From assembly GCA_963708855.1 (NCBI GenBank), contig CAVPUM010000003.1:50407-114406 (forward strand): 64,000 nucleotides of DNA, given 5' to 3'. The DNA comes from an uncultured beta proteobacterium. Lineage in GTDB: Bacteria > Pseudomonadota > Gammaproteobacteria > Burkholderiales > Casimicrobiaceae. This document shows positions 56,422 to 58,969 of this stretch, piece by piece. Position 1 is the stretch's first letter. Every line of letters starts with the position of its first letter. The translations under genes were made by a program, and so were the position numbers. The notes beneath the pieces are model-generated. The model did no database searches, was not told the origin of the DNA, and saw only the letters and a program-made list of their open reading frames with translations.

Positions 56422-57549
56422 TTAGGTCAACGGCCGGGGCGGGTCGGTGATGCCCGCTTTCGACCCTCGGTTCGCAGGACTCACGTTCACCCGAACCGGG
56501 ATGCGGCGTCGTCCCCATTGCCCGTCGAACGCTTCGAATCGCCCCGGAAGCCGCGCATCGCAGTGACGGCAGCGTCCTTCGGGCGTGAGCGCGTAGTCCA
56601 GGATCTCGTGCCAGTCGCGGACGATGACGGGCCTGGCGCATCCCGGACAGAACGTCGTCCCGCCCGTGCGATCGTGCACGTTGCCGGTGTAGACGTAGCG
56701 CATCCCCGCCTTGAGCGCGATGTCGCGCGCCCTCGTGAGCGTCGCCGCCGGTGTGGGCACGAGATCCGTCATCTTGTAATCGGGGTGAAACGCGGTGAAA
56801 TGGAGCGGCACGTCGGGGCCGAGCTCGCGGACGATCCAGGCGCTCATCGCTTCGAGTTCGGCGACGGAGTCGTTCTTGCCGGGAATCAGCAGCGTCGTGA
56901 TCTCGAACCAGACATCGGTCTCGCGCTTGAGATAGACGAGCGTGTCCAGCACCGGCTGCAGGTGCGCGCCGCAGAGCTTGACGTAGAACTCGTCGGTGAA
57001 GGCCTTGAGGTCGACGTTGGCCGCGTCCATCTTGCCGTAGAACTCGCGCCGCGCGTCCACGCCGATGTACCCGGCCGTCACCGCCACCGTCCTGATCCCC
57101 AGCGCGTGGCAGGCGTCGGCGGCGTCCATCGCGTACTCGGCGAAGATGACCGGGTCGTTGTAGGTGAAGGCCACGCTCCGGCAATCCATCCTCGCCGCCG
57201 TCGCCGCGATCGCTTCGGGCGACGCCGCGTCCATCAGCGTGTCCATTTCGCGCGACTTCGAAATGTCCCAGTTCTGGCAGAACTTGCACGCGAGGTTGCA
57301 GCCGGCCGTCCCGAACGAGAACACAGAGGAGCCCGGATAGAAATGGTTGAGCGGCTTCTTCTCGATCGGGTCGATGCAGAAACCCGACGAGCGCCCGTAG
57401 GTGGTGAGCACCATCGCGTCGCCTTCGCGCTGGCGCACGAAGCACGCGCCGCGCTGGCCCTCGTGCAGCCGGCAGTCGCGCGGGCACAGGTCGCACTGGA
57501 TGCGACCGTCCTCCAACCGATGCCACCAGCGACCAGGGAAGTTGCTCAT
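56422..57549 (-). CDS. AmmeMemoRadiSam system radical SAM enzyme
   Basis: CDLCPRDC N-terminal Cys cluster, radical-SAM CNLACKFCQN, C-terminal CPGC...CRHC. ATGA overlap with the upstream gene. Confidence 0.85.
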   Translation of the reverse strand: MSNFPGRWWHRLEDGRIQCDLCPRDCRLHEGQRGACFVRQREGDAMVLTTYGRSSGFCIDPIEKKPLNHFYPGSSVFSFGTAGCNLACKFCQNWDISKSREMDTLMDAASPEAIAATAARMDCRSVAFTYNDPVIFAEYAMDAADACHALGIRTVAVTAGYIGVDARREFYGKMDAANVDLKAFTDEFYVKLCGAHLQPVLDTLVYLKRETDVWFEITTLLIPGKNDSVAELEAMSAWIVRELGPDVPLHFTAFHPDYKMTDLVPTPAATLTRARDIALKAGMRYVYTGNVHDRTGGTTFCPGCARPVIVRDWHEILDYALTPEGRCRHCDARLPGRFEAFDGQWGRRRIPVRVNVSPANRGSKAGITDPPRPLT

Positions 57550-58121
57550 CGCGGTTGTTCGCTCATCAGGAACTCACCCTCTTCCCATTTGGTCACGCCG
57601 TAGCGGGAAACGTTCACCTGCGGGCTCCAGAAATCCGCCGGCAGTCCCGCCTTGCGCTTCAGCGCCGCCAGGAAGCCGCGCGGGTCGGGGAGCGATTCCC
57701 ACACCTGGGGAAGGAACGTCGCGCGATGGTGGCCGTACTCGAGCACCAAGCCGTCGATGTCCGGGCGCAGCCGTGCGAGCAGGTCCGATTCGTCGCGGAC
57801 GTCAAGGCGCTCGTCGGCGGACAGCAGCGACACCTCGACCATGGTGGCCTCGAACTCGACGACGGCGAGCGGCGGAAAGCGAGGGTCGCGGAACGCGGCG
57901 GCGATCGCGTTTGCCCGGACGTCCACGCCGAGCGGACGCATGGGTTTCAGCGAGCCGATGCAGCCGCGTAACTCGCCCGCCAGCTTCAGCGTCACGAACG
58001 TGGCGGCAGGCTCCGTCAGCGCGGCATGGCTCGCTGCCGCGAACGGGCGCAAGCCGAGCTCCGCACCGATCGCCGAGCGGGCGATCGCCAGCAGCGCGCG
58101 GCCGAGATCAGGATCGTTCAT
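57546..58121 (-). CDS. AmmeMemoRadiSam system protein A (AMMECR1 domain)
   Basis: ATFVTLKLAGELRGCIGSL, FRDPRFPPL, ATFLPQVW. Confidence 0.85.
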   Translation of the reverse strand: MNDPDLGRALLAIARSAIGAELGLRPFAAASHAALTEPAATFVTLKLAGELRGCIGSLKPMRPLGVDVRANAIAAAFRDPRFPPLAVVEFEATMVEVSLLSADERLDVRDESDLLARLRPDIDGLVLEYGHHRATFLPQVWESLPDPRGFLAALKRKAGLPADFWSPQVNVSRYGVTKWEEGEFLMSEQPR

Positions 58122-58969
58122 GACGAGGCTCGCTGGTGTTGCGGGTCGGACCCGGGCTCGGCGAACGCGAACGCCGCATAGCCGACCACGCGCGACTTGT
58201 CGCCCGCGGTGTCTCCGGAGTTGCGCAAGTCGAGAAGCTCCGCCTGCATTCCGTGCCGGCGTGCCGCCAGCAGCAACCCGTTGATGGGCGTCGCGCCGCA
58301 GGCCTGCTCGTGATCGAGCGTGGCCGAGAGCGCGAGTATCGCCTCGCCGGTCGCGCGATCGATCTCGCGGGCGTCCGCGTAGCGGTGGTAGTGCGACAAA
58401 TCGGAGCTGACGACAATCAGAGTCTCCGGGCCACCCCAGAGCAACTCGACGACTTCGGCCACCTCGGCCGGTGTCGCGTCGCCGACAGCGAAGGGCACGA
58501 TGCTGAAGTTGGCAAGCACTGCCTGGAGGAAAGGTAGCTGCACTTCAAGCGAGTGCTCGAACGCGTGCGCCGCGTCGCTCGCGCGCACCTGCGGCAGTGT
58601 CAGCGCGGTGGCGGCGCTCTGGCGATCGACGTCCACGGTTCCCAGCGGCGTGGCGAATGCCCGCGCCGACGGCAGCGCGAGGCCGCGGATCGGCACGCGA
58701 TGTGTCGGCCCGAGCAGCACGACGCGCCGGATCGCGTCGCGCCCGGCGGCGAGCCGCGCGTACGCGGCAGCCGCGATCGGACCCGAAAAGGCATAGCCGG
58801 CATGCGGCGCGATCAGCGCCTTGGGAGCGGCGCCCACCGGCGAAATCCGGGATCTCGCCCCTGCGAGATGCGCGCGCACCTCCGCTGCCAGCGCCGACGG
58901 CGCATCGGAATAGAACATGCCGGCCACGGCGGCAGGACGTACATCAGGCATCGCATTGATCCCTTTCAT
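58118..58969 (-). CDS. AmmeMemoRadiSam system protein B (MEMO1 family)
   Basis: VAGMFY, IAPHAGYAFSG, EHSLEVQLPFL, VSSDLSHY, ACGATPI. Start ATG 58969 or 58951. Confidence 0.85.
   Translation of the reverse strand: MKGINAMPDVRPAAVAGMFYSDAPSALAAEVRAHLAGARSRISPVGAAPKALIAPHAGYAFSGPIAAAAYARLAAGRDAIRRVVLLGPTHRVPIRGLALPSARAFATPLGTVDVDRQSAATALTLPQVRASDAAHAFEHSLEVQLPFLQAVLANFSIVPFAVGDATPAEVAEVVELLWGGPETLIVVSSDLSHYHRYADAREIDRATGEAILALSATLDHEQACGATPINGLLLAARRHGMQAELLDLRNSGDTAGDKSRVVGYAAFAFAEPGSDPQHQRASS

Follow-up and report, generated by a model that had tools for sequence, protein, structure and literature searches.

An intact AmmeMemoRadiSam operon, probably cytoplasmic, in the genome of an uncultured member of the Burkholderiales

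In a stretch of 64,000 nucleotides from an uncultured beta proteobacterium of the family Casimicrobiaceae (GenBank assembly GCA_963708855.1, contig CAVPUM010000003.1, positions 50,407 to 114,406; hereafter the window), three adjoining genes encode a Memo/MEMO1-like protein (protein B), an AMMECR1-like protein (protein A) and a radical S-adenosylmethionine (SAM) enzyme. Our analyses indicate that this locus is very probably a canonical, intact and cytoplasmic AmmeMemoRadiSam operon of the order B-A-radical SAM, with a mechanism in which the radical SAM enzyme would act on a substrate presented by the two other proteins. Conserved AMMECR1 and MEMO1 proteins occur in organisms ranging from archaea to humans and have been linked to human disease, without an agreed biochemical function, and the operon of prokaryotes, which includes a dedicated radical SAM enzyme, offers the most direct route to their chemistry.

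Identification and layout of the operon

Each of the three proteins matched the model of the corresponding AmmeMemoRadiSam component over practically the entire profile. Protein B scored 266.3 bits against TIGR04336 (cut-off 26; E = 2.6e-79; profile positions 1-270 of 270), protein A scored 189.9 bits against TIGR04335 (cut-off 99; E = 2.3e-56; positions 2-175 of 175) and the radical SAM enzyme scored 645.8 bits against TIGR04337 (cut-off 220; E = 1.4e-194; positions 2-349 of 349). An earlier reading of this DNA, made from the sequence only, had staked its assignment of the system on these three models, and with all of them matched far over their cut-offs that assignment stands. The Pfam results are concordant, with Memo (PF01875, 163 bits) on protein B, AMMECR1 (PF01871, 146 bits) on protein A and Radical_SAM on the third protein, and close homologues are already annotated at source as 'AmmeMemoRadiSam system protein B'.

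The genes for B, A and the radical SAM enzyme are consecutive minus-strand open reading frames (ORFs) without internal stops in the ORF list of the window (Table 1), and the hidden Markov models cover their products end to end, in agreement with the earlier description of three intact genes in this order. At both the B/A and the A/radical SAM junctions, the TGA stop of the upstream gene overlaps the ATG of the downstream gene, so that the two ATGA overlaps previously noted can be read as TCAT on the plus strand. The convergence with cobB described in the same reading was likewise recovered: the cobB stop (TAG, 56416-56418) and that of the radical SAM gene (TAA, 56422-56424, minus strand) are separated by the three bases 56419-56421. 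Protein B probably starts at 58951 (277 amino acids) rather than at 58969, because the entry for the window's own B product in a public protein collection (P0001) has 277 amino acids, because the second ATG, at 58951 (M7), has the sequence AAGGGA 8 nucleotides upstream, and because relatives of B mostly align from residue 7.

Within 54000-62000, no Rfam match was obtained at E values up to 0.1, and no sigma-70-like promoter was found around the operon. Terminator-like sites around the operon numbered 6, compared with 3.2 expected from shuffled sequences; none lies between protein B and the NYN-LOTUS gene upstream of the triad, and none follows the radical SAM gene. The genome to which the window belongs (G000, 81% complete) carries one copy each of the radical SAM and Memo genes.

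On reading the N-termini of the three proteins (MKGINAMPDVRPAAVAG, MNDPDLGRALLAIARS and MSNFPGRWWHRLEDG), we saw no signal peptide, twin-arginine translocation (Tat) motif or membrane segment. The triad is surrounded by the NYN gene, cobB, a gene for a metallo-beta-lactamase (MBL)-fold hydrolase and a gene for a thiamine pyrophosphate (TPP)-dependent enzyme, with no membrane redox gene adjoining it. Both observations lead us to regard the system as the plain cytoplasmic form.

Table 1. Coordinates of the triad, its junctions and two flanking genes in the window (aa, amino acids).
Feature	Positions	Strand	Size, matches or basis
AmmeMemoRadiSam protein B (Memo/MEMO1-like)	58118-58969	-	283 aa as longest ORF; TIGR04336 and PF01875
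AmmeMemoRadiSam protein A (AMMECR1-like)	57546-58121	-	191 aa; TIGR04335 and PF01871
AmmeMemoRadiSam radical SAM enzyme	56422-57549	-	375 aa; TIGR04337
ATGA overlap, B stop / A start	58118-58121	-	Sequence (TCAT on plus strand)
ATGA overlap, A stop / radical SAM start	57546-57549	-	Sequence (TCAT on plus strand)
cobB	55615-56418	+	NF001753, 267 bits (cut-off 243); PF02146
NYN-LOTUS gene upstream of the triad	59129-60061	- (same strand as triad)	NYN, 123 bits; OST-HTH/LOTUS, 19.7 bits (cut-off 23.8)

The radical SAM enzyme

The cysteine motifs singled out in the sequence-only reading are all present in the radical SAM protein: CDLCPRDC at residues 19-26, CNLACKFCQNW at 84-94, CPGC at 301-304 and CRHC at 327-330. 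Their cysteines fall into three sites, namely the CX3CX2C motif (C84/C88/C91), an N-terminal set (C19/C22/C26/C36) and a pair of C-terminal CxxC knuckles (C301/C304/C327/C330). All 11 are invariant both in 75 close relatives and in 38 relatives of 39-62% identity, triple fusions (see below) included, while the remaining four cysteines of the protein vary among those 38. This pattern suggests that the family is defined by three metal sites, comprising the SAM cluster, the N-terminal four-cysteine site and the C-terminal knuckle pair. The knuckles would be of the zinc-ribbon or rubredoxin type, and the metal at both extra sites is presumptive.

An AlphaFold2 model of the enzyme, built with 75 sequences, reached a mean predicted local distance difference test score (pLDDT) of 85.8 and a predicted template modelling score (pTM) of 0.87, with the last ~20 residues predicted to be disordered. 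The best Foldseek match of this model was PflA (3cb8_A; E = 6.1e-12; template modelling score of 0.76 when normalised to PflA), ahead of the runner-up by about five orders of magnitude in E value. The matches that follow, at E values of 3e-7 to 1e-5, comprise a radical SAM methyltransferase, lipoyl synthase, RlmN, TYW1, QueE and viperin. By sequence, too, no solved structure is closer than PflA (3c8f, E = 1.7e-6), and the second-best NCBIfam model for the protein is TIGR02493. Two additions surround the PflA-like core of the enzyme, an N-terminal extension of ~70 residues that is rich in beta structure and, at the C-terminus, a beta-hairpin module of ~60 residues.

Proteins A and B

In an alignment to human MEMO1 (7kq8), protein B conserves the metal and active-site residues H56, H90, D190, H193 and C224, the last being its sole cysteine, and the two proteins share the motifs APHAGY, GPxH, SSDxxH and CG. 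Protein A contains RGCIGS at residues 52-57, in which C54 is again the only cysteine of the protein, and DPRF at 79-82. It therefore possesses both the RGChG and the DxRa motifs of AMMECR1, which Balaji and Aravind mapped to a cleft and proposed as the active site (PMC2034487). The structures nearest to protein A are 1wsc, 1zq7 and 1vaj.

Conservation of the locus and fusion of its three domains

We compared the locus with 80 loci from other species, in which the radical SAM enzyme is 69-87% identical to that of the window, and with 10 loci from the same genus. Among the loci from other species, 76 of 80 have the B-A-radical SAM order. As regards the exceptions, L061 and L096 are cut by contig ends, and L110 and L112 lack protein A or both partners according to tblastn. 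In L112 (Variovorax humicola) the B gene abuts the radical SAM gene and tblastn detected no A, and in L110 (Hyalangium versicolor) neither partner was found within 8 kb of the radical SAM gene; both may be variant architectures.

Across 88 related loci, the A-to-radical SAM junction is a 4-nucleotide overlap in approximately 37 and an 8-nucleotide overlap in 13, and the B-to-A junction is mostly an overlap of 1-14 nucleotides, with all these counts being approximate because the start codons were inferred by alignment. The double ATGA of the window is common only to L035, L040, L044 and L109, and is carried only by the closest relatives; elsewhere, the genes are joined by other short overlaps, separated by small gaps or fused.

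Fusions are frequent. B and A form a single ORF of 438-469 amino acids in 23 of the 88 loci, and all three domains may occur in a single polypeptide. The four long proteins that we scanned (P0123, P0124, P0130 and P0139; 918-1152 amino acids) are all radical SAM-AMMECR1-Memo fusions, and P0245 (835 amino acids) is a Memo-AMMECR1-radical SAM fusion, with the same domain order as the operon. These sequences come from Logan, JGI and one NCBI record, and P0124 is called an AmmeMemoRadiSam fusion in its source annotation. About 19 of the 150 best radical SAM representatives have the long form with an N-terminal radical SAM domain, at lengths of 900-1,150 amino acids. A homologue search with protein B returned only close single-domain relatives, and the fusions emerged from reading the loci and from the search of representatives. 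Fusions of another kind were seen in three relatives of the radical SAM enzyme, P0197 (47% identity), P0201 (46%) and P0225 (41%), which bear C-terminal membrane redox modules (DsbD_2, FMN_bind and Fer4_5).

The joining of all three domains in one polypeptide, in two different orders, constitutes good evidence that they would work as one physical unit. The formation of a stoichiometric complex had already been put forward from the translational coupling of the genes. That argument does not hold by itself, because stop/start overlaps are common in operons whose products form no complex, but its conclusion is supported by the B-A and triple fusions.

The system is widespread. The radical SAM gene scored over the model cut-off in 24 of 41 near relatives and in 176 of the 401 sampled genomes of the order, each of the latter at least 90% complete, and a representative protein library yielded 1,914 clusters of the enzyme at E values up to 1e-30. 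Among cultivable carriers, a control search put the radical SAM and Memo models over their cut-offs in Thermus thermophilus, and all three models over theirs in Thermotoga maritima, Sulfolobus acidocaldarius, Methanosarcina acetivorans and Methanocaldococcus jannaschii, while close homologues are present in Sulfuriferula sp. GW1 and Aromatoleum toluclasticum. The nearest named relatives of the locus are metagenome-assembled genomes of uncultured betaproteobacteria and Burkholderiales, one of them assigned to the Casimicrobiaceae.

Among the same-genus genomes G001, G006, G009, G010, G011, G017, G019 and G020, several have the radical SAM and A genes split over two or three frames (for instance G001:C4:60730-61775 and G009:C3:593394-594439). 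The assemblies concerned consist of few contigs but have a low marker completeness of 55-84%, and the splits fit long-read indel errors rather than real pseudogenes. The same caution may apply to frame-broken genes in the window, such as that of an ATP-binding cassette (ABC) importer at 36051-42061.

Proposed mechanism and candidate substrates

The motifs and folds described above are compatible with the following mechanism. The PflA-like core of the radical SAM enzyme would reductively cleave SAM at a [4Fe-4S] cluster held by C84/C88/C91, and the resulting 5'-deoxyadenosyl radical would remove a hydrogen atom from whatever substrate the AMMECR1-Memo pair presents. The two extra four-cysteine sites may bind an auxiliary Fe-S cluster and/or zinc, serving in electron transfer or docking. 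AMMECR1 would supply its single conserved cleft cysteine, C54, and Memo would supply a metal centre of His/His/Cys (+Asp/His) residues, at which a subsequent redox or hydrolytic step would take place.

Several observations weigh against this proposal. In the literature searched for the name of the system, for AMMECR1/MEMO1 and for AMMECR1 with radical SAM enzymes, we found no functional study and only passing mentions of the name. Functional reasoning in that literature is limited to comparative genomics (PMC2034487; Burroughs et al. 2019, as relayed in PMC7159879), and within this scope the description of the system as functionally unsolved in the sequence-only reading holds. Furthermore, in the AlphaFold2 model of a B-A fusion each domain is predicted with confidence (pLDDT 89.6) but their relative placement is not (pTM 0.63), and the model supports no claim of an interface between A and B. 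Lastly, in eukaryotes AMMECR1 and MEMO1 occur in the absence of this radical SAM enzyme. A and B must therefore be able to act without it, which weakens models with an obligatory radical step and suggests that the radical reaction supplements, or offers another way to, chemistry of which A and B are capable in other settings.

With regard to the class of substrate, a nucleotide or RNA base is our tentative first choice, based on the RAGNYA-fold nucleic-acid platform, the archaeo-eukaryotic distribution and the analogy with TYW1/TYW3 (PMC2034487). One of the system's own proteins ranks second, at a distinctly lower probability, because the activases to which the radical SAM enzyme is most closely related act on proteins. 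An isoprenoid or other small molecule ranks third and is rather doubtful, being suggested by the ispDF neighbourhood discussed below and by a link that Burroughs et al. are said to have drawn in 2019. Something else takes the remaining probability.

If the substrate were one of the system's own proteins, the radical SAM enzyme would act on A or B, as PflA does on pyruvate formate-lyase, producing a radical or covalent change at or near Cys54 of AMMECR1 (RGCIGS) or at the site of Memo, and the modified A-B pair would be the working catalyst. The characterised relatives nearest by sequence and by fold are indeed glycyl-radical-enzyme activases, which are protein-directed, and both the fusion of the three domains and the single invariant cysteine of A and of B would suit such a scheme. 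In addition, the glycyl-radical domain PF01228 had no match in the window's genome, leaving a PflA-like activase with no classical client, although in a genome that is 81% complete this absence is unproven. The enzyme nonetheless scores far under the cut-offs of the activase models (55.6 against 231.75 for TIGR02493, 43.7 against 174.35 for TIGR02494 and 32.2 against 131.15 for TIGR02495), neither A nor B has a recognisable C-terminal glycyl-radical motif, and eukaryotic AMMECR1 and MEMO1 are well established to retain the same residues in the absence of an activase. On balance, we consider modification of A or B unlikely.

Modification of an isoprenoid, or of another lipid or small metabolite, in place of a nucleic acid appears less likely still. 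Among the 80 loci from other species, ispD (16 loci) and ispF (12 loci), both of the methylerythritol phosphate (MEP) pathway, are found upstream of the triad in divergent orientation. Burroughs et al. reportedly linked Memo, in the abstract of their 2019 work, to the modification of nucleotide bases and of aliphatic isoprenoids. Small molecules are also the substrates of the LigB/protocatechuate-dioxygenase superfamily, of which Memo is a member (PMC7694686). The ispDF neighbourhood, however, occurs only in related betaproteobacteria, its genes diverge from the triad instead of sharing its orientation, and the window lacks it. It may represent inherited housekeeping synteny, like the thiL-pgpA-cinA block, also absent from the window, that stands beside the triad in about 10 of the 80 loci.

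Neighbouring genes

A nucleotide or RNA base, which remains our first choice, would be favoured further if the NYN-LOTUS gene upstream of the triad were functionally coupled to it, since such coupling would point to RNA as the substrate of Memo and AMMECR1. In this scenario, the NYN-LOTUS protein would be a fourth component delivering an RNA substrate to the triad. The gene lies directly upstream of the triad, in the same orientation, in 10 of 10 same-genus loci, even where the other flanks differ, and in L104 (9082-10119) it has moved downstream of the radical SAM gene and is still adjacent and co-oriented. In addition, the two co-occur more often than expected under independence among the 401 genomes of the order, of which 125 carry the two together, 51 have the triad but no NYN gene, 53 the reverse, and 172 lack both (odds ratio of ~8, not corrected for shared ancestry).

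Set against this, the NYN gene adjoins the triad in only 5 of the 80 loci from other species, and outside the window's family co-present NYN and triad genes sit on different contigs. Whole families hold one without the other, with f37, f42 and f43 having the triad but no NYN gene, and f5, f10, f16, f20 and f36 the NYN gene but no triad. The spacer between the two ranges from 63 nucleotides to ~1 kb, and in L048 (5583-6434) a gene for a 283-residue secreted cytochrome-c-like protein (CSACH motif) intervenes between the NYN gene and B. The LOTUS match itself, at 19.7 bits, falls under the Pfam cut-off of 23.8. The phylogenetic-profile link to this gene envisaged in the sequence-only reading consequently does not extend to a general association, and we regard the adjacency as synteny particular to the lineage, while allowing a slight chance that the link is real. 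We give very little credence to same-strand adjacency in this uncultured Burkholderiales family, L104 included, reflecting true functional coupling, and it is equally improbable that the NYN-LOTUS protein serves as the fourth component.

The cobB gene was also considered as a partner of the triad and was rejected, as besides the window it adjoins the triad in just 2 of the 10 same-genus loci and in none of the 80 others. Matches of CobB to its models begin only at residue ~65. The longest ORFs of cobB (from 55615, plus strand) and of the MBL-fold hydrolase (54486-55715, minus strand) overlap by ~100 nucleotides at their 5' ends, and one or both of these genes probably start further inside the ORF.

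According to an unbiased clustering of flanking ORFs, the most common neighbours in the other loci are ispD, ispF, the thiL-pgpA-cinA block and an alpha/beta hydrolase of the dienelactone hydrolase (DLH) family, whose gene follows that of the radical SAM enzyme in 17 of the 80 loci at a median gap of 25 nucleotides. This hydrolase (~218 amino acids, encoded on the same strand as the radical SAM enzyme, as in L105:4199-4855 and L075:2005-2757) is a possible lineage-specific fourth gene, and it too is absent from the window. A phosphoribosyltransferase is encoded nearby in 6 loci (for example, L049:9474-10163). On the other side of the NYN gene, the window encodes a small secreted protein (60192-60584, plus strand; Surface-adhesin protein E, PF16747, 49 bits), located between the NYN gene and the TPP-dependent enzyme (60649-62505) and conserved in some same-genus loci.

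Comparison with known systems

The locus in the window is an ordinary copy of a widespread and already catalogued system, and it provides no new clue to the chemistry. It adds no tractability, because it has the standard form, because the genome is from an uncultured organism and incompletely assembled, and because its NYN neighbour does not generalise. The pointers that emerge are general to the system: B and A are often fused, triple fusions exist in either domain order, and eleven cysteines are invariant.

The AmmeMemoRadiSam system corresponds to the Memo-AMMECR1 systems of Balaji and Aravind (2007; PMC2034487). With the system as defined by TIGR04335, TIGR04336 and TIGR04337, the window shares the gene order, the co-orientation and the diagnostic residues of all three proteins, and it differs in nothing of substance, cobB and the NYN gene being local neighbours. 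Memo-AMMECR1 systems were reportedly described by Burroughs et al. in 2019 as well.

Taken individually, the three proteins compare with characterised relatives as follows. Protein B aligns to human MEMO1 (PDB 3bcz, 7kq8 and 7m8h) over residues 11-211 (E = 2e-20) and keeps its His/His/Asp/His/Cys site, and protein A aligns to ST0229, among the archaeal AMMECR1 structures (1wsc, 1zq7 and 1vaj), with an E value of 2e-24, including the RGCIG cysteine. In contrast to the triad of the window, eukaryotic MEMO1 and AMMECR1 function without a dedicated radical SAM partner, and bacteria offer no obvious parallel to the roles reported for them in receptor signalling and in copper or iron binding. The radical SAM enzyme shares the partial TIM-barrel (triosephosphate isomerase barrel) radical SAM core and the CX3CX2C motif with PflA (3c8f, 3cb8) and the glycyl-radical-enzyme activases. 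PflA is ~18-20% identical to it and has neither its four-cysteine N-terminal extension nor the C-terminal module with two CxxC pairs. Finally, the fusions with DsbD_2, FMN_bind and Fer4_5 modules belong to the same radical SAM family and would be wired to the membrane, unlike the cytoplasmic form predicted for the window.

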